A DNA stretch of 64,000 nucleotides from an uncultured Alphaproteobacteria bacterium (GTDB lineage Bacteria; Pseudomonadota; Alphaproteobacteria; Rs-D84), in NCBI GenBank assembly GCA_944389185.1, contig CALXLL010000004.1, positions 4,830 to 68,829 on the forward strand. Direction: 5' to 3'. Positions 1-56,511 of this stretch are shown here, one piece after another. The first letter of the stretch is position 1. Every line of letters starts with the position of its first letter. Under the pieces are notes generated by a model. It saw nothing but the letters and a program-made list of their open reading frames with translations, was not told the DNA's origin and searched no databases. The position numbers and the translations under genes are program-made.

Positions 1-1432
1 CTTGCTGCCCTTGATATATTTCTGTAATAGCTTGGCGCATAAATTCATCCCATACTTCTTCGGATAAATCGCGACAAGTATCAAGGCTGTTTTCTGCAAA
101 TATTTTTTTATTATTAAGTTCGGCCACCAATAAGCGGTTGGTTTGGTTGGTTAATATGTCGCCTGATAATGAAACCTGAGTTTCTAATTGATAAAATTCA
201 GGACTGTAAATCGGGGCACCAGTATCACGATTTAAGTATCTTCCCGTTATATCCAGACAATGGACATAGCCTTCACCACATGCGCTGTCAGCCGTTAAAT
301 CTTTTCTGACGTTGGCGACACAATCGTTTATAGACGTTGAATTATGTGCATTATAGTTATCCAATCTGGCAACATTCATACTTCTTTCAGCGTCCCTGAT
401 AGAAGCGTTTGCATTATATAACTGCTTGTCCAAAGAATTAATAAGCAAAGAACAATCGTTTTCAATATACATACCGTATGCAGATACAACCATTTTTAAT
501 GTCGCATCAGACGGACAAGAACTTGATATCATTTCTACGCACTGTGCATGAACTGCGTTATATAGCTGTTCACCTGTTAAGTTTGCTATGTTTACGCCCG
601 AAGTTAAATCCGTCGTCGCCCATATTGCATTTATATCCCCCGCAATATCCAAGATGCCTTGTGTTGATAATGATTCAGATTTCGCATTTGATAGAACTTC
701 GCTTATTCCAGCAAGCTGTTGTGCCGCACTGGAAGTATCTTTCGCACCGGCAGCAATAGCTTCACCTTCGCTGGCCGTCATCATAGCTTGAACTTCTTTT
801 GCTGTTTTGTCTATTATGGCTAGATTTAAATTTGCGAAATCTTGCAGTTGACCAGAAGCTTGACTTAGTGCACGTTCCCTGTTTTGTATCTCTGTAATTT
901 TGGACGAGCATATACATCTTCTATAACTGTCGTTTGCCGTGGCACAAAATTGGTCCATACACGTAAAATAAGCATCTCGACATGCGTTATAACCAGTCCC
1001 AAAAGTTGTTGATTCAAGTGTGCTTGTAGATGCCGCCCTGGCAATAGCGTTCGTCGTCTGGGTTATTCTTGGAACAGAAGCAATCCTGGCAATCGCAACG
1101 CTTGGTGAAACCGTTGTTGTCCCCGCACGGGATACTGTATTTGTCGAAGAACGTTGAATTATTGCATTGTTTGTTGATGCCGACCTGGCACTGACATTTG
1201 TTTTTGGTTGCGTTGTTTTGTTCGCGTTATTTGTCCTTGATATAGTCGTGCTGGACCCACGACTTGATACGTTTTTTGATGTCGTTTGTTGCTGTAATAC
1301 GCCAGCCCGAGCCGTTACCGTTGTTGAATTACCGTCTTGTTGTCGTGATATACTATTAGAGTCACGAACAGCAGCTTCGGCCATATGTAAGCCGATAAAA
1401 CAAGCGGTCATAAAGAATAAAATCTTTTTCAT
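1..1432 (-). CDS. Large cysteine-rich secreted protein, paralog D (N-terminal ~477 codons only; runs off the window start)
   Basis: Absent from the ORF track because it has no in-window stop. I translated the minus strand by hand from ATG 1432..1430: MKKILFFMTACFIGLHMAEA|AVRDSNS (signal peptide), then a ~125-aa S/T/N/R-rich tract, then CRDAYFTCMDQFCATANDSYRRCICSS at 902..982. The frame is open to position 1 (checked codon by codon for 1..982). It aligns with the 1057-aa protein at 34294..37467 (CLDITGRYLNRDTGAP vs CLDTTGRYIDPSTGEA; VWDEF in both). Confidence 0.8.
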   Translation of the reverse strand, partial: MKKILFFMTACFIGLHMAEAAVRDSNSISRQQDGNSTTVTARAGVLQQQTTSKNVSSRGSSTTISRTNNANKTTQPKTNVSARSASTNNAIIQRSSTNTVSRAGTTTVSPSVAIARIASVPRITQTTNAIARAASTSTLESTTFGTGYNACRDAYFTCMDQFCATANDSYRRCICSSKITEIQNRERALSQASGQLQDFANLNLAIIDKTAKEVQAMMTASEGEAIAAGAKDTSSAAQQLAGISEVLSNAKSESLSTQGILDIAGDINAIWATTDLTSGVNIANLTGEQLYNAVHAQCVEMISSSCPSDATLKMVVSAYGMYIENDCSLLINSLDKQLYNANASIRDAERSMNVARLDNYNAHNSTSINDCVANVRKDLTADSACGEGYVHCLDITGRYLNRDTGAPIYSPEFYQLETQVSLSGDILTNQTNRLLVAELNNKKIFAENSLDTCRDLSEEVWDEFMRQAITEIYQGQQ

Positions 1433-1907: not shown

Positions 1908-4100
1908 ATGAATGTTAAAAATATACTAGCAATACTTTGTTTGTTTCCAAGTCTGGCGTTCGGGGCAGAAAGAACGGAAGAAGCCCGCGTGGGTGTAAAT
2001 CGTATGTCACAAGCCGCAGCACGAATGCCGAATATGGTTATCAATACAAGTCAAACATCAACTTCTTCTGTTAATACAAATAATTCTGATGCCGTTCAAG
2101 TTACCAAACCTTCTACTGTGACTGACGGTTCAAGTATAACAAATGAAGTTACAGAAAGTGCTTCAAATACTGATACTTCAAATAGTGTGCAGGAAATCGT
2201 GACCGTTGTTGAAGAAACAAATGGTAATTGTCGCGATGCTTATCGTGAATGTATGGATTTATTTTGTCTTTTGGACGAATCAGAAGGTGCAAGATGTGCT
2301 TGTTCTTCTAATATAGAGCAGGCAAAGCCGTTAATACAAGAAATTCAAGAAATTCAAGCAGAAGCAGATAAATTGTATACCGAAGGCGTAGAACGTGAAC
2401 AGTTAGGTGCAAAAGCATCGTTGGTATTCGGTGAAAGTGAACAAGCAAAAAAATCTTCTGCTGCATCAGGTATAAGCTTTACAGATTGGATAAATAGCGG
2501 AACAGAAGAAGCAGGATTGGGAACCGATTCTGGTATAGGTGATAATTTATATGCTATGGCGGCAGAATATTGTGCTTCAGAATTAGAGGCTTGCGGGGAT
2601 AAAGCTGAAATGGAAGAAATGCTTTATACGCGTCAAATAGTTGCCGATTGTAAGACTTTTGATTCTTACCTTGCTATGCAGAAGACAAACGCCGAAGCAA
2701 ACAAAAGAACCGCCGAAGCCGCAGTTAGAAAAGCAAGACTTGAAATGTTGGATACAACCAATAAATATAATCGTGGAGAGTGTCTGTTGGCTTATCGTGC
2801 TTGTATAGCAGATAAAGGTGGTTGCGGAACTAATTTTGAAAACTGCTTGGATGCAGATTTGTTGGCAAGACGTGCAAATGCTTGTGAAAATGTTTTGGAT
2901 CAATGTATGGCCGTTCGCGATTATGTCTTGCAAGACTGGGAAGCAGAAGCACAAAGTATTTTGGTTGAAGCCGCTAAATATGCAGATAAAAACGCTCGTG
3001 GAACATGCTTGGCCAGAATACAGCTGTGTTTAGAAGACAGTTGTTCTACTAGAACTAATTCGGCTTGTTTGACCGACGTTAACGTAGCGGCTGGTATTTG
3101 CCCTGTTATAGATGAATGTGAAGAAATGATCCCTGGTATTAAAACCGTTGTTAACGATAAATTGGGATATTTAAGAACTCAGTTTTGCCAAAATGATGTG
3201 GATTCTTGCCTGCGTGATAGGTGCGGTGAAAACTTTACGGCTCCGGAGTGCGTAGGTAAAACTTCAGCTGAAATTGCGGCTTTGTGTCCGCAGACTATGT
3301 TCCCGTCTTGTAAGAATGAAACTCAGTTTGACATAATTGTCCAAGCTGTGTTGTTGCAGATGGATTATCAGATGATGCAGGGCTGCGTGAATTATTTCAG
3401 TGAACAGTTAGGGCGCGTTTGCGGAACAGATATGTCTTGTTTGCCTACGGATACTCAGATTACGTCTTTAACAACAGTGCCGGATACGGAAGAGGGTTTA
3501 GCCGCTTTGCGTGAAACCGTTCGTGCAAACTCTCAGATTGCTGTTGACGAGTTCTTCAAACAATTTGAACAAGATAAGACCGTAGCCGCTTGTCAAGATA
3601 GCCAAAAACCAGCCGGTCAGAAAAGTCTGGGTGATAGCGTATTTACTACTGCAAAGTTAATTGCAGAAATTGGTGCGGAAAATAGAGCAATGAGAGAGCT
3701 TGAATCTAAAATTGCAGAGCTGTCCAGACAACAAGATTTAGAAGAAGCAGAACAAAATTGCTATGCTATGTTTAAAGTGGAAACGCCCGATAAGTCAAGC
3801 AAAAATTATAGCTATATAAAGAGTGTGTCTTTTGAACCGTCTTTAAGAAATTGTCACGTTTGTCGCGTTCAGCAAGTTTGCGAAGTCGGCGGTGAAACGA
3901 AAATGGCAGCCGCAATGAAAGGTGCAGCAGGTGGTCTGTCTGCTGGTGCAGCTGCAGGAACAATGGTGACACCAGGTTGGGGAACTGCCATTGGTGCCAT
4001 AGTCGGTGCCGTTGGTGGAGGTTTGTTAACAGGTCTTGGGTCCAGCGGTCAGCAAGAGTTCTGTCAAGAAATTGAATCTTGTGAAGACATAAATATGTAA
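1908..4100 (+). CDS. Large cysteine-rich secreted protein, paralog A (730 aa)
   Basis: AGGTGG Shine-Dalgarno 7 nt upstream of the ATG. Signal peptide MNVKNILAILCLFPSLAFG|AE, S/T/N-rich tract, signature CRDAYRECMDLFCLLDESEGARCACSS (2229..2309). Roughly 36 Cys by hand count, a Gly/Ala-rich hydrophobic segment, and a C-terminal CEDINM. Confidence 0.9.
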   Translation: MNVKNILAILCLFPSLAFGAERTEEARVGVNRMSQAAARMPNMVINTSQTSTSSVNTNNSDAVQVTKPSTVTDGSSITNEVTESASNTDTSNSVQEIVTVVEETNGNCRDAYRECMDLFCLLDESEGARCACSSNIEQAKPLIQEIQEIQAEADKLYTEGVEREQLGAKASLVFGESEQAKKSSAASGISFTDWINSGTEEAGLGTDSGIGDNLYAMAAEYCASELEACGDKAEMEEMLYTRQIVADCKTFDSYLAMQKTNAEANKRTAEAAVRKARLEMLDTTNKYNRGECLLAYRACIADKGGCGTNFENCLDADLLARRANACENVLDQCMAVRDYVLQDWEAEAQSILVEAAKYADKNARGTCLARIQLCLEDSCSTRTNSACLTDVNVAAGICPVIDECEEMIPGIKTVVNDKLGYLRTQFCQNDVDSCLRDRCGENFTAPECVGKTSAEIAALCPQTMFPSCKNETQFDIIVQAVLLQMDYQMMQGCVNYFSEQLGRVCGTDMSCLPTDTQITSLTTVPDTEEGLAALRETVRANSQIAVDEFFKQFEQDKTVAACQDSQKPAGQKSLGDSVFTTAKLIAEIGAENRAMRELESKIAELSRQQDLEEAEQNCYAMFKVETPDKSSKNYSYIKSVSFEPSLRNCHVCRVQQVCEVGGETKMAAAMKGAAGGLSAGAAAGTMVTPGWGTAIGAIVGAVGGGLLTGLGSSGQQEFCQEIESCEDINM

Positions 4101-4137: not shown

Positions 4138-6642
4138 ATGTTTAGTAAAAAAAGTTCTTTAAGACTGTGGGGCTTTATCGGAATATGTGTTTTTGCTAAT
4201 TCGTCTTTTGCGGCCATAACTCAAAGACAATCTGCAATTCAGCAAGGAACAACGGTCAGATCAAGAACTTCTGCAACTGGTTTATATTCTCAGGAATGTT
4301 ATGACGCTTATTATGGTTGTATGGACCAGTTTTGCATACCTGATAACGCTAATGGTGGAAGTTGCACTTGCAGTGATGACAGTATTGAATATGAAAAGCA
4401 GTTTGCCGAAATAGAAGAAATGTTTAACGAAGCCGAACGTATAAGAACAGAAGAAGTAGAAAAAGTTAAAGCCGGCGCAAATGCAGATATAGTATTTACG
4501 GGTGAAAGAAGGTATGATTCAGATGGAAATCTTCTTGGGATAGGCGAAGAAACGGAAGAAGAGGCAAAGGAAAAAGCTCGTCAGGATTTGTTGGCGGTGT
4601 TTAATACCAATTTTTATGAAGAAGAAGACGATGTTTTTTCTTCTATCAGCAGTATAGCAGATTTAACAGGTGACGATTTGTATGCTAGTGCGGAAGAGCT
4701 TTGTCTGCAACAAATGCCAACTGGTTGCGATAACGATTTGACTTTCATAAGACAGTTATATGCAAGACAGATTGTTTCTGATTGTAACGGTTTTGCAAAT
4801 ATTATTAAGAGTAAAAAATCTGAAGCCGAGGCGGCTTTGGCAAGCGCTGAAGCAGAAGTAAGAACGGCTTTGCAGGAAAGTTTTGATTCTGCCAATAAGT
4901 ATGATTTGGGAACGTGTATGGTAGAATTCAAAAAATGTATGTTAACAGATGACGCTTGCGGTGAAGATTGGATTAATTGCGTATCCGTTGTTGCTTCGGA
5001 AAATATGCAGAATAATCAGGCAGAAAGCACGGCAGGAACAAGTATAGCCAGTGCTGATGTCTATGATATTACATCTTCTACGATGGAGATATTAAATTCT
5101 AAACGTCCGATTTGTGAAAGTGTTCTGTCACAATGCGTTGCCGTTCGTGATCAAGTTTGGCCCGCTTTTTTACGTGAAGCGGCACCTACTATTAAGGTTG
5201 CAGAATCTCAGGCTGAATCAAAGTTCCGTCAGTCTTGTTTGACCGAGATTTCAGATTGTATTCAAACGGCGTGTCGTGATGATATTGCTGGTAAAGGCGT
5301 TGCAACTATGGACGCTTGTTTATCCAGACCAGATATGGCGCGCAGTTTCTGTAAAGTAGAAATAGACCCTTGTGAAAGAATGGAACCTTTAATTTGGGGA
5401 TATGTTGTTGATAAGCTGGCTGCTATGCGTGTTGATGCTTGCACGCAAGAAGTAAAAGATTGCTTTACTAACGAGAACCGCTGCGGGCCTAATTTTGAAA
5501 ACTGCATAGGTATGGATTACGAATATATTCATAATATATGTCCTATAGATAGCTTAGTTGTTTGTAAGGCGAACAATCCTAACTTTTCTATGGAAGATTT
5601 AGATTCTATGTTAATGGGTCTGTATTTGAACATAGATAATGCAATGTTAGATAATTGTCAAAATGCAGTTGATAAGAAAATGGCTGAAATCTGCGGCAGC
5701 ACTACTGATTGTAACCGTTTCGCGTCAGATGATACTATTGGGACAGGAAGTTTGCGTTCTCAGAAAGACGGAGATGTTTATAGAGTTACCGGTATGATTT
5801 CGTTTGGCAGTATAAAGATGGGGGATGCATCTGGTTCTGTGACGGACACAATTGATGGTGAAGAGGTAGCATTAGAGCCTGGGCAAATAGGCGTTCAAGA
5901 TTATATAGCTAAAATACGTGAAGCAAATAAGGACGTTCCAGATCAGGCAAGCATAATAACTTCCATTGAAGAAGAGTTGAATAATATAGCTGGGACGATT
6001 AACAGGACGATAGAAATGATATCGCAAGATCCAGAAATTCAGTATTGTGTCAGTGGACGTAATTTATCACAGATTACAGGCGTAGAAGGCCAAAGCACTA
6101 CGGCAAGATTTCCGAATTTATTAAATCAGGTAAAGATGCAGATTGCGATAGCCGCGCTTAGACAAGCGCAAGATAATTATAACGCAAAGTTAAATACGGC
6201 AATAGCCGATGCAACAAAGAATGCATCTACGGACATTGCGCAGTATATGTGTCAAAAAATGGCTCAGAACGGTAGTTATGCTTTGGATATTTATGGCGCA
6301 ACTCCGTCAACGTCTTTAACTGAACCATATGCAATTAGTTATGAAGTAGGAACAGGGTTATCAAATGCAGAGCTTATAAGTGGCGGTGCTGGTGTATTAG
6401 AAATGGGCGGCGCAACATTTAAGAACTCTGGTTATCTTGGTGGCTCGGACATGACAGGTGGTGGTGCAACAAAAGAAACAACGGCAATATTTAATCGTGA
6501 TACAAGAATATGTCATATTTGCACGACTGTTACAACTCAATCTTGTGAAACAACGGGTAGCAGTAGCTGGTTCCATAATAACAGGAACGCTAGTTGTGAA
6601 ACTGTAGTTTCAGAGCCAAAGTGCGAAGACATACAGATGTAA
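4138..6642 (+). CDS. Large cysteine-rich secreted protein, paralog B (834 aa)
   Basis: Starts 37 nt after paralog A on the same strand. Signal peptide ...VFANSSFA|AI; signature CYDAYYGCMDQFCIPDNANGGSCTCSD (4297..4377). Collinear with A (LYA.A.E.C, Y.RQIV.DC, NKY..G.C, CG..F.NC, C..VL.QC.AVRD.V). Ends CEDIQM. Confidence 0.9.
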   Translation: MFSKKSSLRLWGFIGICVFANSSFAAITQRQSAIQQGTTVRSRTSATGLYSQECYDAYYGCMDQFCIPDNANGGSCTCSDDSIEYEKQFAEIEEMFNEAERIRTEEVEKVKAGANADIVFTGERRYDSDGNLLGIGEETEEEAKEKARQDLLAVFNTNFYEEEDDVFSSISSIADLTGDDLYASAEELCLQQMPTGCDNDLTFIRQLYARQIVSDCNGFANIIKSKKSEAEAALASAEAEVRTALQESFDSANKYDLGTCMVEFKKCMLTDDACGEDWINCVSVVASENMQNNQAESTAGTSIASADVYDITSSTMEILNSKRPICESVLSQCVAVRDQVWPAFLREAAPTIKVAESQAESKFRQSCLTEISDCIQTACRDDIAGKGVATMDACLSRPDMARSFCKVEIDPCERMEPLIWGYVVDKLAAMRVDACTQEVKDCFTNENRCGPNFENCIGMDYEYIHNICPIDSLVVCKANNPNFSMEDLDSMLMGLYLNIDNAMLDNCQNAVDKKMAEICGSTTDCNRFASDDTIGTGSLRSQKDGDVYRVTGMISFGSIKMGDASGSVTDTIDGEEVALEPGQIGVQDYIAKIREANKDVPDQASIITSIEEELNNIAGTINRTIEMISQDPEIQYCVSGRNLSQITGVEGQSTTARFPNLLNQVKMQIAIAALRQAQDNYNAKLNTAIADATKNASTDIAQYMCQKMAQNGSYALDIYGATPSTSLTEPYAISYEVGTGLSNAELISGGAGVLEMGGATFKNSGYLGGSDMTGGGATKETTAIFNRDTRICHICTTVTTQSCETTGSSSWFHNNRNASCETVVSEPKCEDIQM

Positions 6643-12091: not shown

Positions 12092-12916
12092 ATGACTTGG
12101 ACAATATTGGTTCTAATAGTAGGTATTGCTCTTTACTTGTTTGGTGGCTTGCTATTCAAACAAGACGGTAAAAAACCTTCTACAAAAATCATGCTAGCAC
12201 ACAAATCAATCAAAATGCTTGCTATCATATTGGTTGCAGGCAGCGTTTGTCGTTTGTATGTTCCATACTATATGACTTCTGTAAATCCTATGATTTTACA
12301 AGAAATGATTAATAGCATGCAAGAACAGCAAAACGCAGAAAAAAATAAAGCGATTCGTTCTTTCGTTCGTGACAATACGGACGTTATGGTTGCAGATGCA
12401 CCTGTTATGGGTAAGCAAGACGCTAAGAAAACCATATTTGTCTGGACAGACTTTTCTTGCCCATACTGCCGTCGCGTTCATGGCGAATTAGATCGCGTTT
12501 TAAAGAATCGTGACGACGTTCGCGTTGTTGTTAAGAACTTTTCTATACACGGTCCTTTGTCTGATGGTCCTGCAAAAGCAGTTATCGCAGCTAAATTACA
12601 AAGTCCAGAAAAATCTGCTAAGTTAGTAGATATGTTGATGACTCGCAATTATTACACTCAGGATGATTTGAAAGATCAATCAAAGATTGCTGAAAAAGTA
12701 GAAAAGAACGTTATGAAAATGGCTGAAGAAGCTGGCTTGGATACGGCACAACTGAAACAAGATATGGATGGTGAAGTTGTCGCTCGTGAATTAGCAAACG
12801 TTCGTGATTTGGCTCAACGTTTTGAAATCACAGGAACACCTTTCTTAATCATCGGTGAAGAAGCGTTCCCAGGTGCAATACCTTATGAACAAATCAATAA
12901 TGCTTTGGACAAATAA
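12092..12916 (+). CDS. Membrane-anchored DsbA-family thiol:disulfide oxidoreductase
   Basis: 274 aa; N-terminal TM anchor; thioredoxin-fold active site FSCPYCRR (CPYC); C-terminal ...GTPFLIIG typical of DsbA/Com1-like proteins. Confidence 0.8.
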   Translation: MTWTILVLIVGIALYLFGGLLFKQDGKKPSTKIMLAHKSIKMLAIILVAGSVCRLYVPYYMTSVNPMILQEMINSMQEQQNAEKNKAIRSFVRDNTDVMVADAPVMGKQDAKKTIFVWTDFSCPYCRRVHGELDRVLKNRDDVRVVVKNFSIHGPLSDGPAKAVIAAKLQSPEKSAKLVDMLMTRNYYTQDDLKDQSKIAEKVEKNVMKMAEEAGLDTAQLKQDMDGEVVARELANVRDLAQRFEITGTPFLIIGEEAFPGAIPYEQINNALDK

Positions 12917-30266: not shown

Positions 30267-30791
30267 ATGCAAGAAAATAAACCTATGTTAATAGTAGGTC
30301 TTGGAAATCCTGGGCCAGAGTATGCATTAAACAGGCACAACGTTGGATTTATGGCAATAGATTATTTTGCTGGGGCGGGCGCAAGTTGGAAGAATGAAAA
30401 GAACGCGCTTACGTTCGGGACCGATTTGGACGGTCACAAGGTAATATTTGTAAAACCGCAAACATTTATGAATAACAGCGGTATAGCCGTTCAGGCTTTG
30501 ATGCATTTTTATAAGATACCGCTGGAAAACTTGATTGTGATACACGACGACATGGATATAAAACCGGGCAGTTTTCGTAAGAAGACGGGTGGCAGCAGTG
30601 CGGGGCATAACGGTATAAAGTCCATAGATGCAAGCGTCGGGGCAGATTATCAAAGAATAAGAATCGGTATCGGTCATCCGAAAGATTTTAATTTACAGAT
30701 GTCACCTTCGGATTGGGTAGTCAGCAATTTTTCTAAGGCAGAGCTGGAAACGATATCCAAAGTAATACCAGAAATAAATCTATTTGACTAG
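30267..30791 (+). CDS. pth: Peptidyl-tRNA hydrolase
   Basis: MLIVGLGNPGPEY...RHN.GF motif and HNG.KSI. ATG 30267 was chosen. The 5' extension of the track ORF (30096..) overlaps the opposite-strand OMP gene and is spurious. Confidence 0.9.
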   Translation: MQENKPMLIVGLGNPGPEYALNRHNVGFMAIDYFAGAGASWKNEKNALTFGTDLDGHKVIFVKPQTFMNNSGIAVQALMHFYKIPLENLIVIHDDMDIKPGSFRKKTGGSSAGHNGIKSIDASVGADYQRIRIGIGHPKDFNLQMSPSDWVVSNFSKAELETISKVIPEINLFD

Positions 30792-33088
30792 TAAGGTATA
30801 TTTATACCGCTTGGTAAATAAAAGCATCCGTTATTATCACAGAACTGTGTTCCAGAACTTCCGCCGGTAATTGTGCAAGCGTTTATATTTTGTGCACTTG
30901 TAGTTGTGGTTGTAGAACCTGCTGGGCAAAGCTGGCAAACGGTTTTACCGGCGGTTTCTGAACCATAATAACCCAGTGGGGCAGGGGAGCATTCTATTGA
31001 ATCTGATGTTTCAAGGCAACAGCCTGCCTGACAGGATATGTTACCATATGTGCAGTTACCCCACATAGTATTTTCACCTGTGCCAGAGAGATATTGACAG
31101 CTTGAATTTCTGGTTCCACAATCACCGGCCGCTTCGCCACTTGTATTACATTCACATTTGGCGTAGTTATACACTTGGTCTTTGTCATTCCATTTTGCTA
31201 ATCCAGTTATTCCAAAACCGAATTCGGTACTTTTTGGACAATTACCTAGGTGTTCAGAACATGCAATTTGGTTAGGGTCGCAGGCAGGATATAAGGTTGT
31301 TTCACATTGTGTGCTAGTGCCATCTGGGTTGCCGTGATAATTGCTAGCGCAACTGGTTATATAACACTGTCCGTATTTGCTTTCGTCGTTTAACCAGAAC
31401 TTAATACCAGAAGAAGCATTGGTATCGTCTGGTTTGCAAGATTGTTTATTTGGTATGCAGGCATTATTGGCTTCTGTTGGGTCGTTTTCATTAAAATGAT
31501 AACCAAAGCATATGTCATCTGGATTATTACAAGTTACGAAATTTTTATCTTTAAAATTGTTATATTGGCAGTCGTTTTCATAATATACGTTTTTTATATC
31601 TGGTTTTAACGAACCACCTGTAATCGTTTTGGCTTCGCATACTTGATAACAATCTGTATCGTTTATAGAACCTTCTGCAGAATGAACCCATGGGGCAGGA
31701 CATTCTTGCTGGCCTATGCCTTCCCCAGGACAATAAGAACCACTAGGGCATAGTTTACATTTATTTACAGCATCAAAATCACATCCAGGGATGCTGAGAC
31801 ATACTTCTTGGTCTGTAATACTATTGCATTCACCCGTGCAGTCGTCCGGGGAATCTGAACCTGCTGGGGAGCCTGTTCCGGTTGGACATTCTACGGGTTT
31901 ATCTGGTCCACCTGCACACCAATAACCTTCTTCACATTGTTCACAAGTGGCGGTGCCATTTGTTTCTGTTACATATGCGCCTCTAGTTGCCCGAAAATCA
32001 ATTGATACTGTTATTTCACCCCAAGCAGTTGCACTGGATGCCGTTTGTTTTAACTGTCCAGAGTCGCAATATTTGCTTACTGTTGTGGCATCTTTTGTTT
32101 GATAACAATTACTATAACTAGTCCAACCAGTTCCAGTTCCACGTGTCCAACCGTCAGTTTGTGCAGGACAACTGCTGCAACTGGTTGCTGTTCCGCCATT
32201 AGAATACACTGCACCACTGCATTGTGTGCATGTGTTTAATTTTCTATCTATAAAAGCCCCAGGTTTTGCTTTTACTTTATCCATTTGTGTGGGCCCCCAA
32301 GTTCCTTCTGCGGTGGCGTTTTGATATATGTATCCGCTTTCACAAAAATTACTGATTGATGTCGCAACTTTTGTTTGGGTGCATTGTGTAATATTTGACC
32401 AACCTTCACCAGTTGAAAGCGTCCAATTCGTTGTGTTTGTTGGACAATTTTTTCTTAGCCCATTTTCACAATATACACTGCCACTGCATATTGTTTGTGA
32501 TATACATGCAATGTTTGTTGATTGACAATCAGAAGCATAATATCCTGTATTTGGTGTCAAGCAAGATTCACTGGCTTTTTGTTGGGATGTTTTATACTGA
32601 CCAGATTGGCAAGCCTGCCATACTGCATATAATATAATACCTTGTGACGGGTCATAATCTGATGGAACAGTATAATTAAAGCTGCCGGTTGTTGCAGAAG
32701 TATTTGTTGACCAACCTATTAAAACATATCCTGCACGATAAAAATTGGTTGTATTTCCATCTGGTAAACTGATGTTATTGTCAGATGATACGTCTGTTAT
32801 TGATTCTGGTGCAGTTCCATTACCGCCATTCAGGTTAAATGATATTCCTGGTATCGGTATGGGACATTCTGTATCACCTGCACAGGTATATCCATCCGGA
32901 CATGGCAGACAAGCATTTCCAGCAGCAGACACTGGGTTACATTCTTTGTTTGTGTTGGATGTCGCCATATAATAATTTTTTGAACAAGAAGAGTATTTTT
33001 TGTCGCATGTATATCCTGCACCTGCCACATTATATATTGGGACAATAAATATAACAAAAATAATAAAATATTTAATGTATTTTAACAT
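30788..33088 (-). CDS. Secreted cysteine-rich surface protein (766 aa) with a Listeria-Bacteroides repeat and C-x2-C-P-x-G-type (ephrin-receptor-like / GCC2_GCC3-like) repeats
   Basis: Signal peptide MLKYIKYFIIFVIFIVPIYNVAGA. ISFNLNGGNGTAP...AGYVLIGWSTN...IILYAVWQ (32615..32845) fits the Flg_new/List_Bact repeat. Also CLPCPDGYTCAGDTEC, CEQCEEGYWCAGG...EC, CKLCPSGSYCPGEG...EC, CQLCPAGSTTTT...AC. Confidence 0.85.
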   Translation of the reverse strand: MLKYIKYFIIFVIFIVPIYNVAGAGYTCDKKYSSCSKNYYMATSNTNKECNPVSAAGNACLPCPDGYTCAGDTECPIPIPGISFNLNGGNGTAPESITDVSSDNNISLPDGNTTNFYRAGYVLIGWSTNTSATTGSFNYTVPSDYDPSQGIILYAVWQACQSGQYKTSQQKASESCLTPNTGYYASDCQSTNIACISQTICSGSVYCENGLRKNCPTNTTNWTLSTGEGWSNITQCTQTKVATSISNFCESGYIYQNATAEGTWGPTQMDKVKAKPGAFIDRKLNTCTQCSGAVYSNGGTATSCSSCPAQTDGWTRGTGTGWTSYSNCYQTKDATTVSKYCDSGQLKQTASSATAWGEITVSIDFRATRGAYVTETNGTATCEQCEEGYWCAGGPDKPVECPTGTGSPAGSDSPDDCTGECNSITDQEVCLSIPGCDFDAVNKCKLCPSGSYCPGEGIGQQECPAPWVHSAEGSINDTDCYQVCEAKTITGGSLKPDIKNVYYENDCQYNNFKDKNFVTCNNPDDICFGYHFNENDPTEANNACIPNKQSCKPDDTNASSGIKFWLNDESKYGQCYITSCASNYHGNPDGTSTQCETTLYPACDPNQIACSEHLGNCPKSTEFGFGITGLAKWNDKDQVYNYAKCECNTSGEAAGDCGTRNSSCQYLSGTGENTMWGNCTYGNISCQAGCCLETSDSIECSPAPLGYYGSETAGKTVCQLCPAGSTTTTTSAQNINACTITGGSSGTQFCDNNGCFYLPSGINIPY

Positions 33089-33167
33089 TCTTCTCGCTAC
33101 GTTTATCCTTAGTTTTATACTAGAAAAATAGAACTATTCTTGCAAGGGAAAAATAAGAACATAATAA

Positions 33168-33195
33168 AAAAATCCGGCTGTGCCGGATTCTTTAC
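33168..33195 (-). terminator. Rho-independent terminator after the lipoprotein gene
   Basis: On the minus strand: gaatccggc-acag-ccggattttttt. Confidence 0.55.
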
Positions 33196-34016
33196 CTTTG
33201 TTTGACATTTTGTATGTCTTGCAGTTGTTTATTAACTGTCCAACCGTTTTCAACAAACCACGTGCTGTCTGCTGGTTTGATTAAGCCCGGTTGAAATTGA
33301 AAGTTTCCATAACCTTTGGCTTTACCGTTACCAGCCTTGATGCTGGTTTCAAGAAAGTTTCTTTCTTCTGTAATTCTTTCTGCATCCGTCCAAGATAAAT
33401 ATTCACGTGAATATATAAGATTCAAAAATATATTTTGAATGTCAGGATTTTGTGCATGATATTTTATGGAATCTGGTTGTATTTGACTGTGACGTGAACG
33501 GCCACAATTTAATATAACGTCTTTCCCTGGTATTTTTACTTGTGGTTGATTTACTGTCCAACCTTGTTCAACCATCCACAGACTGTCTTCTGGTGGAATG
33601 CCACCTGGCTGAAAATTAAAACCGCCATATCCAACTGTTTTGGGTTTACCTGCATCAACCATTTCTTGCAGTATTGGTCTTACTTTTGTTAAATCGTCCG
33701 TTGTATATACTAAATAATAGTCTGGTGTCATTGAGTTTAAATATATGGTTTTTACTGTTGAATCGGCGGCTATCTTTGATATGTTTTCTGTTTCTACTTC
33801 ATTCATATTACTAAAGTTAAAACTTAAAATCTCTATCTTGGTCGGAACATAAGGTTCAGTGTCTGGATTGTCTGGAACTTCTGGAACTTCTGGATCTGGT
33901 TTGTCTGGAACTTCCGGAATAGGTTTTTCACATGATGTTAATATTGTCGCCCCAGCCATACATATCATCGGTATCATTCTGCGCAACTTATAGGGTAATA
34001 TTTGTTTCAGTTTCAT
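33192..34016 (-). CDS. Lipoprotein with a Pro-rich linker and two tandem copies of an unknown ~100-aa domain
   Basis: ATG 34016 follows AAGGAAA. Lipobox ATILTS|C; linker PEVPDKPDPEVPEVPDNPD. The duplicated motifs are GYGGFNFQPGGIPPEDSLWMVEQGWTVN and GYGNFQFQPGLIKPADSTWFVENGWTVN. Confidence 0.8.
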   Translation of the reverse strand: MKLKQILPYKLRRMIPMICMAGATILTSCEKPIPEVPDKPDPEVPEVPDNPDTEPYVPTKIEILSFNFSNMNEVETENISKIAADSTVKTIYLNSMTPDYYLVYTTDDLTKVRPILQEMVDAGKPKTVGYGGFNFQPGGIPPEDSLWMVEQGWTVNQPQVKIPGKDVILNCGRSRHSQIQPDSIKYHAQNPDIQNIFLNLIYSREYLSWTDAERITEERNFLETSIKAGNGKAKGYGNFQFQPGLIKPADSTWFVENGWTVNKQLQDIQNVKQR

Positions 34017-34293: not shown

Positions 34294-37200
34294 TTACTCG
34301 TATGATACTTGCCATTTGTTCGGTATTTGACAAGATGTTTCTGGTTGATCCGATTCCCATTCTTGCGTATCAAAATTCAATGTGCAACGGGGAACACTGT
34401 CATAATATAAATAATAGTTTTCTGATTGGTTCGTTGTCGTGGGCCTTATGTATTGCCCCGTCGTCTTGTTAACCAATACATATTCACCAGCACATCTAAT
34501 CGTTTTACCGTTCGGAAATGCACCGCCTTGGTCTTCGAATGACGTTTCCCCACCAGAACAAATTAAGAAATACGTCCCGTCCACATATTCTGCGTTATCC
34601 TTAACAACCGCCGCAGCAACCAAATTGTTCGGTGCGTTCGGCGTGCATAATCCTCTGGGTATCGTGGTCGCCGTCTGACCTGTCCGGAAATAACTCGTAG
34701 TGGTTTCCCAATTCAAATTATTTACCTTTTTCGGGCTTTCTTCTTTGCAGCAGTTCCCGTTAAAGTCTAGCGTCCCAGATACGTCACCGTCTGCCGTGGT
34801 TTTCTTGCAGCAATTGGTTATATTATTTGCCAAACCTTCTAACGTGATTTCAATCCTTTCAAAGTTTTCAGGACACATAACACCGTCATCGGTAAAATTA
34901 CTGGAACTATAACAAGATATATTACCGTTTTCATCTGTCTGGGCCCTGTAACCAATAGGACACGTCGTGTCGCGACAACTGTCCGCACGACTTTCCGTGC
35001 TGGTGTTCTTGGCAAACCAATACAGTAAAGTTTCTTTTTTGCTGTCCGTATATTTTATCCTGTTATGACTTTTTGAAGATTGTAAGTTCGTCGTCGGTAA
35101 TACTTCGCAGTTACCCCATAAACTTTCAGCAATCCTGCAAGCCTTGCATGAAAAAGAATCTTTCGTCCCGTAACTGTCGGTATCAGAATCATATCCGCAT
35201 TCTGTCGCACATATGTCATATATACAATTAAAGGCTTGACTTGTTCCGTCTTCTTGGTTAATAGCAAGAGCGCTGCACGCATTAGATGCTTCTTGCGTGT
35301 TCGTTATCGTTATGTCTATTTCGTTACCATATAAATACTTGTAGAACGTCCCTGTTTCTGAATCTATTATTTTGTTTTCTACTAACCTGGCCGTTACGTT
35401 GTCTATTGCCGACTGACCCGCGTCAACCACGCAATTAACAACTTCTTCCCAACAGGAATAACGATTTATAATAGATTTTCTGTTAATAGAATTCTGCACG
35501 TTTTCACATAAACCAAAATTACCAGATATTGACTTACATGCTTGAATCATGCAATTCTTACCAATTTCACGGCACGTCTGTAATATAGTGTCATACGTCT
35601 TGTCAGTAGCTATGTCGGTCATACCACCAATCCAATCGCTGTCACCACCTGTCGTTTCAAGTAACGCCGTGCAAGCCTGTTGAACCCCAGAACATATTTC
35701 TTTTACCGTCCTGTCAGCTGTAACGCCGAATACGGATAATGCCCTGGAATCAAAGTCTTCTATGGAATCTGCCGTTTCCGTTAAGCACTGGGTTGTTAAC
35801 GTAGTGCAACTTTGACGCATGTCTTCAAGCTTTTGTTCTTGGGCAAGCTTTATCTGCGCCAACGCATCTTCTATGAATTCGTCCCATACATAATCTGATA
35901 TGTCTTGACAGTTTTCCATGGCAGGTTCTAAAAACTTCTTTTTGGAATTTAAAAAACTGACAAACGCTTCGTTACCAGGTGTGTTAGTCCACGTCTGATC
36001 CGGGGCAGGGCGCGTTATAAGATTAACTAAGTTAACTAAGTCAACCGTTAAGAAAGCTTCACCAGTAGATGGGTCTATGTAACGCCCCGTCGTGTCTAAG
36101 CATTTACCAAGATTATCACCGCATACAGAATTGTCCGTCAACATATCCAACATTTTCTTTTTGCAGGTCAATATGTCGTCTGAATTCCGCTTTTGATATA
36201 TGTCTAAACGAGCCATATCAAGTAATGCACCGCTTTCAAAAATCTTTTCTCGGGCTTGGTCTTGTTGCGTTTCATACGCTTTGGCAACGGTATTACAGTC
36301 TTGCTCTATCAACATTTGATAGCCGCTTTCTATTATATCTAATTCTTCCTGAGAACATATTTCTAGCGCCATTTCACGACATACTGGTAACGCCGCATTA
36401 TATAACGCCGTTCCTGTCTTGCTGGTAGTGCTGGCCCCCAATAGCGGGTCTACTGTGTCAAACGCAGCATCCATGTTTAACGATAAGTTTATAGCATTTA
36501 AACTTTGATTAAAGTTTTCATCGTCAAAGCTGGCGTTTAATTTTTCTGCTATTTCATCCAGTAATTTCTTGGAATCTGTTTCGTCTTCTTTGTTAAATGC
36601 CAATTCACCTTCTGTCGCTTCAAATAAAGCTTCGGCGTCTTCTGCGTCCATGTTGACCGTTAATAGACGCTGATTAAAATCAAGCATCTTTTCTTCTATT
36701 TCATTTAATTGCTGCTTTACAGAATCAAATTCGTTTACGCGACTTGAACACGCGCAACGCTTAAGCTGACTGTCTTTGTTAGCACAAAATTCATCCATAC
36801 AGTTATTGTATACTTCACGACATTCTTGATAATTACTGTTCAATATGTCTTCTGCCGTTACCGCTTGAACTTCTGATAAACCTGTAGTCGCGCTTCTGGA
36901 TATTCGCCCGGATGAAGCCGCGTTGCGCACAGAACTTGCACTGGATATTCGTGATTGGTTGGTTGGCATTACACCAGTCCTTGCAATTGCCGCACGCGAA
37001 GGAACAGATATAACGTTGTTGGCACTTCTGCTGGTCATACTGCCCGTCGTTTGATTAGTTGTGCTTTGCCTTGATACGTTTATTCTTGTCGGCTGCGCTG
37101 CAACCCTTGATTGAACATTGGATGTAGATCTTACCGTGACGTTCTGCGCCTGCCTGTTGGTAACCTGAGAAGATGAATCAGACGTTTTTACGGCAGTTCT

Positions 37201-37467
37201 GTCTACAACTTCACCTGTTTCATCGCGATTACGAATTATCTGTTGGTCTTGCTTTGTCGGTGTGGCAGATGTAGAACGTGATATAGATGATGTAACATTC
37301 GTTTGATTTGGCTGTGAAGCAGAAGATGTTTGTCTGGTTGATGCTATCGTCGTCGTTTCACCACGACGAGTAGCCGCACGAACTGCGTCTTGCGCTTCTT
37401 CTGCCATACTTGCTTGAACGCCAAGCAAAGCAAGCACCAGACAAAGATATAATCTTATCTTTTTCAT
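34294..37467 (-). CDS. Large cysteine-rich secreted protein, paralog C (1057 aa)
   Basis: Signal peptide MKKIRLYLCLVLALLGVQASMA, a ~190-aa S/T/N/R/Q tract, signature CREVYNNCMDEFCANKDSQLKRCACSS (36742..36822). Central region homologous to paralog D. Distinct C-terminal ~330 aa carry CP.GY and CC motifs. Confidence 0.9.
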   Translation of the reverse strand: MKKIRLYLCLVLALLGVQASMAEEAQDAVRAATRRGETTTIASTRQTSSASQPNQTNVTSSISRSTSATPTKQDQQIIRNRDETGEVVDRTAVKTSDSSSQVTNRQAQNVTVRSTSNVQSRVAAQPTRINVSRQSTTNQTTGSMTSRSANNVISVPSRAAIARTGVMPTNQSRISSASSVRNAASSGRISRSATTGLSEVQAVTAEDILNSNYQECREVYNNCMDEFCANKDSQLKRCACSSRVNEFDSVKQQLNEIEEKMLDFNQRLLTVNMDAEDAEALFEATEGELAFNKEDETDSKKLLDEIAEKLNASFDDENFNQSLNAINLSLNMDAAFDTVDPLLGASTTSKTGTALYNAALPVCREMALEICSQEELDIIESGYQMLIEQDCNTVAKAYETQQDQAREKIFESGALLDMARLDIYQKRNSDDILTCKKKMLDMLTDNSVCGDNLGKCLDTTGRYIDPSTGEAFLTVDLVNLVNLITRPAPDQTWTNTPGNEAFVSFLNSKKKFLEPAMENCQDISDYVWDEFIEDALAQIKLAQEQKLEDMRQSCTTLTTQCLTETADSIEDFDSRALSVFGVTADRTVKEICSGVQQACTALLETTGGDSDWIGGMTDIATDKTYDTILQTCREIGKNCMIQACKSISGNFGLCENVQNSINRKSIINRYSCWEEVVNCVVDAGQSAIDNVTARLVENKIIDSETGTFYKYLYGNEIDITITNTQEASNACSALAINQEDGTSQAFNCIYDICATECGYDSDTDSYGTKDSFSCKACRIAESLWGNCEVLPTTNLQSSKSHNRIKYTDSKKETLLYWFAKNTSTESRADSCRDTTCPIGYRAQTDENGNISCYSSSNFTDDGVMCPENFERIEITLEGLANNITNCCKKTTADGDVSGTLDFNGNCCKEESPKKVNNLNWETTTSYFRTGQTATTIPRGLCTPNAPNNLVAAAVVKDNAEYVDGTYFLICSGGETSFEDQGGAFPNGKTIRCAGEYVLVNKTTGQYIRPTTTNQSENYYLYYDSVPRCTLNFDTQEWESDQPETSCQIPNKWQVSYE

Positions 37468-37701: not shown

Positions 37702-39219
37702 ATGAAAAAATTATACGCTCGTCTTTTAGGGTCTTGCTTTTTCCTTGGACTAACCAGTGCTGTTAATGCAGCAGGAACTTATTATACAGGAAGTTATCGG
37801 TCTTTACAGCAACCTTATTCTCAGCAAGTTGCAGCAAGGCAAAATACTTATTATTCTCCTTCTTATACTACAACAGGATATAATTCTAATACTGGTTATT
37901 CTTCTTATTATAATTCAAGATATGCAACCACAAATAATGCTTATAACACTGGTGTGCAGACCTCACAAAATACTTCAAATGCTTCAACCGCTTCAAGCGG
38001 GCAACAAAAAAACGACGGCTTTTATATAGGAGCTGGAATTAGCCATGAAAATGCTATGTGGAAATTCGATATGAATCAATCTGGTAGTATTTTACATTAC
38101 GATAATATAAGTTGGAACGTTTTAGATGTTAAAGCAGGTTATGGTTTTAATTTAGGTAATACAGCTGCAAAAATAGATGCTGGATTCAGGTATGGTATGC
38201 AGTTTGGTGAAACTACAATGGTAGATGATGATATTACAAACGGCGGCTTTTTAGTTACGCAGTGGTGCGAGTCTGTCGATTCTGATGGCAAATGCGTTGG
38301 TTTTATAGGTGATCAAATGGGGCACGCTTTGTCCGTTGGTTCAAGTCAGGGCGGCAGTTTGATGGAGTTTAACGTGGGATTCGGCTTAACGGATATGTTT
38401 AAAATAGGTAATATAAAAGTAACACCATCACTTGGTTTTCGCTATCTAAGCTATAATCTTACAACTGAAAGAAATTATGGTTTGTCTGTTGATACCGCTG
38501 CTTGCATAGAAGTTAACGGTGAAATCCAATGTAATCCAGCTATCATAATAGAACATAGTAATGGAACCCAAGAGATTTTATGGTATGTCAAAGATGACGA
38601 TAGCGACGGTTTTTGGGATATTGCTTCTGGTGATGCGGTTGGTATAAACCCCGGTGGAACATATTACTATCAACAACCGGGAGTAAGTCATTCTTATGAT
38701 ACTACATGGGCCGGTCCATATGTGGCTTTGGATATGGTATACGATATAAACGATAATAATGCTGTTAACGGTTTTGTTGAATTAGGACTGCCGGGATATA
38801 CTTCTACTGGTGATCAGCCTTATAGATTTGATTGGCAGCATCCAAAGAGTATAGAAGATAAAGCTGGTATTGGTTCCGCTTTGCATATCGGTTTAGGAGC
38901 TAATTGGACGACGGCAATAAGTAACAGTATGTCTTTGTCGGTCGGCTTAACTTATGACTATTATTCTGTAAGTGGTGCTGATGCAAATACTTATTTAAAT
39001 GAAAGTTATTATACTGATTTGTATAACAGTATTCTTAATTCTGACCCATGGAATGGTGACGAAACAGCTATGTTGGATCCGAAAACTGGAAGCCCAACCG
39101 CAATAAATATAAAAGAAATAGAAAAAGAATGTCCAGGTTGGGTATGTTCTGCTGCCGGTGAAATTAACTCCATTTACAAATCTATGGGAATAAGAGTAGG
39201 TTTACAGGCAAAATTTTAG
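37702..39219 (+). CDS. Outer-membrane beta-barrel protein with an N-terminal Tyr/Ser/Asn/Thr-rich low-complexity region (505 aa)
   Basis: Signal peptide ...TSAVNA|AG; an 80-aa Y/S/N/T tract (37774..38017); amphipathic beta-strand pattern. Three closely spaced Cys pairs (C..........C). C-terminal MGIRVGLQAKF with a terminal Phe. Confidence 0.7.
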   Translation: MKKLYARLLGSCFFLGLTSAVNAAGTYYTGSYRSLQQPYSQQVAARQNTYYSPSYTTTGYNSNTGYSSYYNSRYATTNNAYNTGVQTSQNTSNASTASSGQQKNDGFYIGAGISHENAMWKFDMNQSGSILHYDNISWNVLDVKAGYGFNLGNTAAKIDAGFRYGMQFGETTMVDDDITNGGFLVTQWCESVDSDGKCVGFIGDQMGHALSVGSSQGGSLMEFNVGFGLTDMFKIGNIKVTPSLGFRYLSYNLTTERNYGLSVDTAACIEVNGEIQCNPAIIIEHSNGTQEILWYVKDDDSDGFWDIASGDAVGINPGGTYYYQQPGVSHSYDTTWAGPYVALDMVYDINDNNAVNGFVELGLPGYTSTGDQPYRFDWQHPKSIEDKAGIGSALHIGLGANWTTAISNSMSLSVGLTYDYYSVSGADANTYLNESYYTDLYNSILNSDPWNGDETAMLDPKTGSPTAINIKEIEKECPGWVCSAAGEINSIYKSMGIRVGLQAKF

Positions 39220-55959: not shown

Positions 55960-56511
55960 ATGAAAAAGATTGTTTATACTTTTATCTGTTCGCTTTTGTT
56001 CGTTGGTTTAGGTTATGCCTATGCGGATGACTTTGTATCGTGTGGCCCAGGCTATATATTAGTTGAATCGGGAAGTATGGACGGCATTGATACCGCAGAG
56101 TGTCAAAAATTATGGTGTCGTGATTTAGAAACAGGTGGTTATATGGGCAGCGGTGATAGGGCTAGTTCTGGATATAAAGATACAGAAGCCCCCGTTGAAT
56201 TATATGATAATGACGGTAATCACATAGAATGTTTTGGTGACCGCAGATGGTGTTCTGGGGAACCCGTCGGTATTTGGCGCCCCGAATACGGTGCTTATAC
56301 CAAAGGCGGTTCAGACGATACTTCTTATTATTCTTATCAAAAGGGTAGTTGTTTTGCCTGGCGTATAGAACAACCTTCTTGTCCAGAAGGGCAGACGGCT
56401 ATACTGCAAGACGGGGAATGGAAGTGCTTATCTGCAGTCGAAACAACAGAAGCTAGCAGAGAATCCAGCGTTCGTAGAACAGGCACTTTAAGAAGGGCTA
56501 TTATAAGATAA
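55960..56511 (+). CDS. Small secreted cysteine-rich protein (183 aa, 10 Cys in the mature part by hand count)
   Basis: ATG 55960: MKKIVYTFICSLLFVGLGYAYA|DD. Contains CGPGY....C..LWC and CPEGQTAILQDGEWKC motifs. Basic C-terminal tail RRTGTLRRAIIR. Confidence 0.7.
   Translation: MKKIVYTFICSLLFVGLGYAYADDFVSCGPGYILVESGSMDGIDTAECQKLWCRDLETGGYMGSGDRASSGYKDTEAPVELYDNDGNHIECFGDRRWCSGEPVGIWRPEYGAYTKGGSDDTSYYSYQKGSCFAWRIEQPSCPEGQTAILQDGEWKCLSAVETTEASRESSVRRTGTLRRAIIR

Follow-up and report, generated by a model that had tools for sequence, protein, structure and literature searches.

What does a protein with repeats of the kind known from ephrin receptors do in a bacterium, and where does it come from? 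The question is raised by a gene of an uncultured alphaproteobacterium of the Rs-D84 lineage (GenBank assembly GCA_944389185.1), located in a stretch of 64,000 nucleotides of contig CALXLL010000004.1 (positions 4,830 to 68,829), which is hereafter called the window and to which all coordinates refer. The gene codes for a real, exported and disulfide-rich protein of 766 residues (aa). A first-pass annotation made from the letters alone had described it as a surface protein combining eukaryote-like cysteine repeats with a bacterial repeat, possibly host-mimicking or host-binding and possibly acquired horizontally. As judged by homology, this protein is a fusion of two cysteine-rich families specific to its own lineage; it is native to its genome, and it varies as a mosaic on a fixed cysteine scaffold. 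The reading favoured here, with a probability of about 0.55, is that of an adhesin, i.e. a protein for contact with, or recognition of, a partner or host, which would be exported by the Sec pathway, folded by DsbA and diversified by recombination.

Domain content and chimerism of the 766-aa protein

The open reading frame (ORF), which the first-pass annotation had delimited exactly (Table 1), opens with ATG and, besides Cys (8.0%), T, G, S and N are abundant in its product. The four cysteine motifs pointed out at that stage were all found again (at aa 60, 382, 444 and 718), together with a fifth CxxC-led unit at aa 287. There are no more than six CxxC among the 61 Cys. Neither the frame nor the motifs can be attributed to chance, since 61/61 Cys are kept in a 56%-identical orthologue and more than 120 homologues exist. 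Besides, an identical protein (P0001) was called on a separate metagenome contig, where the order of the genes is unchanged, and many contigs carry near-identical alleles, one example being NCBI assembly GCA_949293515.1. At its 3' end, the gene shares 4 nucleotides (30788..30791) with the convergent pth (30267..30791, +), an overlap kept in all related loci (L001, L004, L059-L062), while the terminator-like hairpin on its other side implies a transcript of its own. As regards export, values above 1.6 in a Kyte-Doolittle (KD) hydropathy scan are confined to windows that start within aa 1-10, and outside aa 1-24 the maximum is 0.79.

A search across 5.8 billion proteins recovered these homologues exclusively from metagenomes or metagenome-assembled genomes (MAGs), Candidatus Enterousia being the sole organism name. 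They are unannotated, being either nameless, 'hypothetical' or 'InlB B-repeat-containing', the NCBI naming following their Flg_new domain. Their coverage (119 sequences) falls beyond aa ~400: the N-terminal part of the protein (aa 1-~400) is common to about 100 proteins of 700-1330 aa, and the C-terminal part (aa 420-766) aligns over 84-90% with the stand-alone proteins P0121-P0123 (E 1e-19 to 1e-25). The latter belong, with P0138, to a secreted Cys-rich family of about 360 aa, for which an exhaustive HMMER search with a C-terminal profile returned 247 clusters at E<=1e-3 and 108 at E<=1e-10, overwhelmingly of 340-420 aa; fusions of the N- and C-terminal families were rare in that search (P0002, P0162 and P0185). 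The two-family chimera, the expansion of the family and the hypervariable blocks described below had all escaped the first-pass annotation.

Members of the N-terminal family differ hugely in length and repeat number. There are also giant relatives (P0232/P0305, MBR2285905.1; P0176; P0261) of 2,400-4,430 aa, which contain 14-16 repeat stretches and whose contigs measure 0.2-0.9 Mb; they presumably come from the same reduced-genome lineage, in which a single gene would then take up to ~1.5% of the genome. Most members (101/120, e.g. P0010) end in a common tail of ~90 aa (...GLTTIG.GAGADE..DCGR......LYLRS.KKT...L...I.G..FYGNM......L.I.....TYSVYDDSM) that has no Pfam match, and several of those devoid of it appear frameshifted or truncated. 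In the literature searched, no description was found of either Cys-rich family, of the ~90-aa repeat, of the paralogue tail or of the C-terminal fold; as for bacterial GCC2_GCC3/Ephrin_rec_like families or VSP-like proteins, nothing relevant was retrieved except PMC6993872.

The N-terminal part begins, after the signal peptide, with a family module whose columns Y26, C28, C35, Y39, Y40, N58, C60, C63, C69, G71 and P76 are invariant or nearly so in an 18-sequence alignment, and whose motif (A-G-Y-x-C...Y-[ST]-[ST]-C..YY...AGNAC.PC; here aa 24-76) is found in 97/120 homologues. It is followed by the Listeria-Bacteroides repeat that the first-pass annotation had placed at 32615..32845, within a few nucleotides of the PF09479 (Flg_new) match, which scores 30.4 bits on the whole protein and 37.1 bits on the isolated segment against a gathering threshold (GA) of 27, over profile positions 3-65 of 65. 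The corresponding NCBIfam model TIGR02543 stays at 16 bits, under its cut-off of 20.95. This domain represents only 10% of the protein. Searching PDB sequences with the single protein gave no match, and with the family profile only Flg_new-containing bacterial proteins, namely the N-terminal domain of an exo-alpha-sialidase (E 0.003) and, weakly, the InlB B-repeat. A Cys-rich linker then leads to two copies of a family repeat of ~90 aa, each made of a Cys head resembling those of tumour necrosis factor receptors (TNFR) and ephrin receptors, a GW..G.GW motif and a long beta-hairpin. The two copies align with a score of 177, compared to 46 +/- 9 for shuffled sequences (z ~15). Copy 2 is the best-conserved segment of the family, with ~57% identity to the repeats of the 1200-1300-aa paralogues, and its Cys head reaches sub-threshold scores with Ephrin_rec_like (19.6 bits, aa 277-312) and TNFR_ELAPOR1_6th (21.1 bits).

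The first-pass suggestion of GCC2_GCC3/ephrin-receptor-like repeats holds: PF07699 (Ephrin_rec_like, formerly GCC2_GCC3) scores 26.6 bits on the whole protein across three stretches, above its GA of 23.1, the best segment lying in the C-terminal module (Table 1). PF23091 (TNFR_ELAPOR1_6th) remains at 18.8-21.1 bits, under its GA of 33.2, which is passed by the paralogues P0036 (39.5 bits), P0003 (45.1) and P0005 (36.0); with Ephrin_rec_like, paralogues reach 42-57 bits. The likeness to Giardia variant-specific surface proteins (VSPs) and furin-like repeats did not hold beyond motif resemblance, and membership in these families (PF03302; PF00757 and relatives) was rejected, no Pfam match being obtained at E<=1. 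The protein terminates with ...CFYLPSGINIPY. Its last 16 residues (aa 751-766) are 94% identical between species and the motif FCD..GCF.LP is kept across the stand-alone family, so that the C-terminal tail (aa 739-766) is a possible docking or sorting element.

AlphaFold2 (AF2) models agree with this anatomy. In the full-length model, based on a 59-sequence alignment, the predicted local distance difference test (pLDDT) is 80-96 for aa 30-420 and below 50 for aa 483-625; the latter segment was resolved by the deeper alignment of the stand-alone family (63 relatives), with which aa 420-766 are modelled at a mean pLDDT of 95.1 and a predicted template modelling score (pTM) of 0.74. The Cys spacing, like these models, is compatible with TNFR/ephrin-type modules of beta-hairpins stapled by disulfides. 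Compared with the PDB by Foldseek, the full model retrieves only eukaryotic extracellular Cys-rich proteins: the Chlamydomonas mastigoneme protein Mst1 comes first (E 1e-6 to 3e-5), followed by thyroglobulin, ELAPOR1, the cysteine-rich domains (CRDs) of EphB6, EphA2 and EphB2, and the TNFR-family members 4-1BB, CD40, DcR3 and TNFR2. The Eph and TNFR matches are weak (E 0.01-0.5, as for ELAPOR1), their low template modelling score (TM) being due to the fact that the model is a long multi-domain rod. For the C-terminal module, Foldseek finds no significant whole-module match in the PDB (best E 1.5e-3, TM<=0.18) and only ephrin/TNFR-type sub-modules match locally; according to the model, this module is thereby a confidently predicted fold without solved homologue.

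Native status and localised divergence

The horizontal acquisition that the first-pass annotation considered possible is not borne out as a recent event. The window has a GC content of 37.5% and carries ordinary bacterial genes (polA, pth, tRNAs, pyruvate:ferredoxin oxidoreductase (PFOR), OmpA-domain, Pom-type porin, SLT, M23 and DsbA-like). The GC content at third codon positions (GC3) of the 766-aa gene is 0.26, compared to 0.23-0.42 for its neighbours, i.e. a native composition, its slightly raised total GC being due to amino-acid composition. In a sister species, the orthologue P0002 likewise has pth/polA on one side and the lipoprotein gene on the other (locus L004). No phage or plasmid homologues were found, and a repeat scan revealed no flanking repeats around the gene. 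On these four grounds, recent horizontal gene transfer (HGT) or a mobile element was rejected. The gene is native to this genome, and its relatives show an old, expanded bacterial clade.

The eukaryotic connection is of another order. PF07699 is considered to have arisen in early eukaryotes, a lone bacterial case being taken as HGT (PMC6993872), and the solved-structure matches are all eukaryotic; both points support the first-pass interpretation. The closest relatives are nevertheless hundreds of proteins of gut Alphaproteobacteria. Of 20 distant matches looked up, those with a named source came from Alphaproteobacteria or Pseudomonadota MAGs, apart from a JGI 'delta-60 repeat protein' and a single eukaryotic sequence, a mollusc PCSK5/SCUBE-like protein reached by the C-terminal profile at E 1.5e-10 across 25 repeats. 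The link to eukaryotic repeats is thus real but distant at the sequence level, and any transfer from eukaryotes would be ancient, because the closer bacterial relatives come from gut lineages of hosts as different as termites, birds, rodents, ruminants and humans.

When the species-representative genomes of GTDB were scanned with a single N-terminal pattern (Y[TS][ST]C[NAS][SE]GYY, which the YSSCSKNYY of the present protein itself escapes), 54 loci were identified, nearly all in uncultured gut Alphaproteobacteria or 'Rickettsiales' MAGs from humans (Hadza, Brazil), chicken, yak, deer, rabbit, mouse and termites. By this pattern, at least 13 assemblies have two or three loci each, and one family-bearing circular genome measures 958,618 bp (OZ007020.1). 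A family member (33% identity to query aa 2-328) is also borne by OZ246409.1, a 716,531-bp 'chromosome' titled 'uncultured Muribaculaceae bacterium' (locus L024), whose size and content suggest a mislabelled Rs-D84-like alphaproteobacterium. Rs-D84/Enterousia bacteria have genomes below 1 Mb, lack biosynthesis and respiration, and are predicted to be obligate symbionts or parasites of other cells (PMC12306168).

Between species, the 766-aa protein stands out from its surroundings. In the comparison of the window with L004, identity is 94.5% for PolA, 90.8% for Pth, 88.2% for the lipoprotein and 85.7% for a 182-aa outer-membrane protein, and only 55.6% for the 766-aa protein and P0002, with the 61 Cys all in place; it drops to 34% in aa 351-400 and likewise in aa 601-650. 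The nonsynonymous divergence (dN) amounts to 0.39 for this gene versus 0.03-0.09 for its neighbours, and its ratio to the synonymous divergence (dN/dS) to 0.36 versus 0.06-0.23 for the genes of PolA, Pth, the 182-aa protein and the lipoprotein, DUF805 being at 0.32; as dS, estimated according to Nei and Gojobori (NG86), is near saturation in places for this pair, the argument here relies on how the gene contrasts with its flanks and not on the absolute values. The protein evolves fast on a fixed cysteine scaffold.

Within the species, 13 alleles are 90-100% identical and their differences are strongly clustered in three blocks, A, B and C (Table 1), with additional scattered differences at aa 656-733. 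In block A, 8/12 residues change together among alleles that are 97-99% identical overall. In the blocks, dS is 0.10-0.49 and dN 0.06-0.42, compared to a dS of 0.003-0.015 in the flanking PolA, whereas the remainder of the gene is at background; block dS is thereby 10-30 times the background. In one pair of alleles, the three blocks combined give a dS of 0.49 and a dN of 0.42, PolA being at a dS of 0.015 in the same pair. Since dS and dN are both raised, divergent segments have been imported, giving mosaic alleles, rather than mutated in place, and the presence of all four combinations of blocks indicates recombination. Within the 64 kb, neither local donor cassettes or pseudogenes, nor inverted repeats, invertible promoters or slippage tracts were found; in a tblastn search of the family against the window only the 766-aa gene itself matched, and repeat and promoter scans were unremarkable. 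The upstream gene (33192..34016, -) codes for a predicted lipoprotein of 274 aa with an LTSC lipobox, a PE/PD-rich repeat linker (nt 33855-33919), an internal duplication and no Pfam match. In allele L061 its dS is 0.19 versus 0.015 for PolA, and the recombination hot-spot seems to extend into it.

Table 1. Features of the 766-aa gene and protein, with the associated DsbA-like gene (coordinates in the window)
Feature	Position	Strand	Basis
Complete gene, 766 aa, 61 Cys	30788..33088	-	ORF list; identical protein P0001 predicted on separate contig
Sec signal peptide, aa 1-24, MLKYIKYFIIFVIFIVPIYNVAGA then G	33017..33088	-	Hydropathy; AF2 helix 2-23; family consensus ...NALA, cleavage, AGY.C
Conserved N-terminal family module, aa 25-80 (AGYxC..Y.SC..YY...C...AGNAC.PCP.GY.CAG...CP), includes first CxxC unit	32849..33016	-	Alignment columns
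Flg_new / Listeria-Bacteroides (InlB B-repeat) domain, aa 82-156	32621..32845	-	Pfam PF09479; pLDDT ~90
Family repeat copy 1, aa 199-280 (~85-95-aa repeat)	32249..32494	-	Self-alignment; AF2 strands 249-260/263-274, pLDDT >90
Family repeat copy 2, aa 288-373	31970..32227	-	Self-alignment; homologue comparison
Hypervariable block A, aa 358-369, second strand of copy-2 hairpin	31982..32017	-	Allele alignment
Cys-rich unit CEQCEEGYWCAGGPDKPVECP..., aa 382-417, last segment common with the large N-terminal family	31838..31945	-	Homologue coverage
C-terminal module, aa 420-766, compact predicted fold	30791..31831	-	Stand-alone family homology; AF2
Hypervariable block B, aa 437-506, wholly replaced in allele P0125	31571..31780	-	Allele alignment
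Ephrin_rec_like-type unit, aa 441-480 (CKLCPSGSYCPGEGIGQQEC...)	31649..31768	-	PF07699 21.5 bits, just under GA 23.1
Hypervariable block C, aa 619-650, includes indel-bearing loop	31139..31234	-	Allele alignment
Strongest Ephrin_rec_like repeat, aa 698-738 (...CSPAPLGYYGSETAGKTVCQLCPAGSTTTTTSAQNINAC)	30875..30997	-	PF07699 31.9 bits vs GA 23.1, E 1.1e-7
Conserved C-terminal tail, aa 739-766 (...GGSSGTQFCDNNGCFYLPSGINIPY)	30791..30874	-	Inter-species identity; family motif
Terminator-like hairpin, 12-bp stem + T-run, between upstream lipoprotein gene and 766-aa gene	33167..33193	-	Sequence scan
Membrane-anchored DsbA-like thiol-disulfide oxidoreductase	12092..12916	+	Pfam DSBA 75.9 bits

Possible function and rival explanations

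According to the contact reading, a genome-reduced gut alphaproteobacterium (order Rs-D84, Enterousia-like) would export a rod-like modular protein by Sec, and a periplasmic DsbA-like enzyme would oxidise it into a rod of disulfide-stapled modules. This rod would be displayed on the cell or released, thereby allowing contact with the partner cell or host surface that a metabolically dependent bacterium would need. The Cys scaffold would remain fixed while a few exposed loop or hairpin blocks would be kept diverse by recombination importing divergent segments, the pressure presumably coming from phages, host antibodies or a change of ligands. The DsbA-like protein encoded in the window is the likely catalyst of the ~30 disulfides, and its gene is kept in a genome below 1 Mb without respiratory chain. 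The idea of a surface protein, already voiced in the first-pass annotation, is in line with the signal peptide, the divergence and the mosaic blocks: the evolution of this secreted protein resembles that of exposed interaction proteins. More generally, large, fast-diversifying, secreted Cys-rich proteins are the most obvious candidates for contact machinery in Rs-D84/Enterousia. These bacteria are uncultured, they are common in the guts of humans, livestock, rodents, birds and termites, and their genomes indicate that they must live off another cell (PMC12306168).

Several observations nevertheless weigh against this reading. The signal peptide is the sole hydrophobic segment of the protein by hydropathy, leaving no membrane anchor, and neither a lipobox, nor an LPXTG motif, an autotransporter barrel or a known secretion signal was found in the protein, so that its passage across the outer membrane would have to be assumed. 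The ...YSVYDDSM tail, a candidate that might anchor or sort the family, is replaced here by the module of the second parent family, although the well-conserved last 16 residues may take its place. The number of Cys is odd, leaving at least one unpaired. Besides, dN/dS stays below 1 not only between species but also in the blocks (0.6-0.9); positive selection is therefore not demonstrated, and relaxed constraint together with recombination could suffice for the variation. Finally, the reading depends on a partner cell that the literature on Rs-D84 does not name (PMC12306168, PMC11257099); Rs-D84 is also present in flagellate-free higher termites (PMC11257099).

The odd Cys count would also fit a structural role, in which a free thiol could serve as cross-linker. 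The protein would then belong to a disulfide cross-linked outer layer stabilising a reduced cell, in the manner of the chlamydial cysteine-rich outer-membrane complex or of an S-layer, and its variation would have arisen incidentally, under pressure from phages or antibodies and not through ligand recognition. The density of such genes (the 766-aa gene and four genes of a second Cys-rich family, described below, within 64 kb), the giant relatives in genomes below 1 Mb, the retention of DsbA, the neighbouring Protochlamydia-type Pom porin and the fact that the best fold match, Mst1, is a filament-forming glycoprotein all point in this direction. This envelope role is still rather unlikely in our view: peptidoglycan machinery is encoded (SLT, M23 and OmpA domains), leaving no obvious need of a rigid shell, the wide spread of length and repeat number in the family is unlike that of lattice-forming proteins, and Flg_new and localised hypervariable loops are commoner in binding proteins. 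It is also doubtful, though easier to entertain, that Rs-D84 would wear a coat made of an expanded set of TNFR/ephrin-receptor-like proteins as a counterpart of the Giardia VSP coat, with loops shuffled by segmental recombination for antigenicity or partner specificity; the 766-aa protein would be a chimeric member of this coat, joining a conserved head to a structurally novel Cys-rich binding module.

The host mimicry evoked by the first-pass annotation would make the protein a decoy, whose ephrin-receptor/TNFR-like repeats would have been taken by HGT from an animal or a gut protist and would bind ephrins or TNF-family cytokines. The eukaryotic birth of PF07699, with its bacterial cases ascribed to HGT (PMC6993872), the exclusively eukaryotic structure matches (Eph CRDs, ELAPOR1, 4-1BB, CD40, DcR3, TNFR2 and Mst1) and the mollusc protein reached by the profile would be expected in that case. 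However, native GC3, conserved synteny, the missing link to mobile elements and the hundreds of closer bacterial relatives leave room for an ancient transfer only; in addition, Pfam detects no ephrin ligand-binding domain, fn3 or kinase in the protein, the Eph/TNFR structure matches are weak, and no solved ligand interface can be mapped. A decoy function is accordingly judged improbable. Still less credit is given to a periplasmic or metal-binding protein devoid of surface role, in which CxxC would either bind Zn or Fe, a role proposed for Giardia VSPs, or serve as a redox buffer in the periplasm of an anaerobe. With only six CxxC, a Cys spacing and very high-confidence AF2 models that are compatible with disulfide-stapled beta-hairpins, a retained DsbA and a mosaic, localised hypervariability that would be unusual in a periplasmic housekeeping protein, this explanation has to rely on the Sec signal as the only export signal, no outer-membrane translocation signal being recognised, on the anaerobic nature of the organism (PFOR present, no respiration; PMC12306168) and on a weak FtrD-like match in some relatives. 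Returning to the contact reading, Cys-rich proteins of this kind could be used as antigens or baits, i.e. as handles to identify the partner and to enrich or culture Rs-D84/Enterousia, and an expanded bacterial family of a 'eukaryote-born' repeat bears on the origin of TNFR/ephrin-receptor-type modules.

Known systems and neighbouring genes

By analogy, the 766-aa protein appears organised like the variable Cys-rich surface families of gut protists and the recombining antigens of bacteria rather than according to a new mechanism. With PF07699 proteins (Eph CRD, ELAPOR1, SCUBE/PCSK5-type and Mst1), it has in common the same repeat by profile, with further matches in the fold search, and disulfide-stapled beta-hairpin modules arranged in extracellular rods, here by prediction. 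It differs from them in being bacterial, in having no Eph ligand-binding domain, fn3, transmembrane helix or kinase, and in adding the bacterial Flg_new, a ~90-aa repeat peculiar to the lineage and a C-terminal module for which no homologue has been solved. In Giardia, a VSP ends with a C-terminal transmembrane helix followed by an invariant CRGKA tail; the present protein has neither of them, nor a match to PF03302. Like VSPs and the Cys-rich surface antigens of ciliates, it belongs to a secreted, CxxC-containing multigene family with 5-8% Cys, in an anaerobic, host-dependent gut microbe. A conserved N-terminus, a variable repeat core, a C-terminal tail conserved in most paralogues and a fixed Cys scaffold with fast divergence are also reminiscent of VSPs, but there is no sign of mutually exclusive expression, the variation being instead an allelic mosaicism at a single syntenic locus.

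Among bacteria, the Listeria InlB B-repeat proteins resemble it through one bona fide Flg_new near the N-terminus, whereas the leucine-rich repeats (LRRs), GW modules and LPXTG of internalins are absent and the bulk of the protein is made of Cys-rich repeats that internalins do not have. As in the recombining variable proteins of host-restricted bacteria, such as Anaplasma Msp2, Neisseria Opa/PilE and surface antigens of Rickettsiales, hypervariable blocks are localised, flanks conserved and recombination segmental, and the bearer is a genome-reduced, host-dependent alphaproteobacterium. In contrast to these systems, the 64 kb yielded neither pseudogene cassettes that could act as donors nor inverted repeats or slippage tracts, the fold is unrelated, and a disulfide-rich rod takes the place of a beta-barrel or pilin.

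Elsewhere in the window, a 505-aa outer-membrane protein (37702..39219, +) matches the Pfam family Pom at 41 bits (GA 22.4), a Protochlamydia family that is unexpected in an alphaproteobacterium. A secreted Cys-rich protein of 183 aa (4.9% Cys; 55960..56511, +) has no Pfam match. A second, unrelated family of secreted Cys-rich proteins is encoded at <1..1432 (-), 1908..4100 (+), 4138..6642 (+) and 34294..37467 (-), with 477+, 730, 834 and 1057 aa, respectively. Its members contain 4-5% Cys, are 24-30% identical to one another (E 1e-11 to 1e-52) and combine a signal peptide, an S/T/N/Q/R-rich linker and the motif 'C..(A/V)Y..CMD.FC......RC.CS', again with no Pfam match. Together with the 766-aa gene, this family occupies about 18% of the window. 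The 1057-aa protein and its orthologue share 76% identity at a dS of 1.55.

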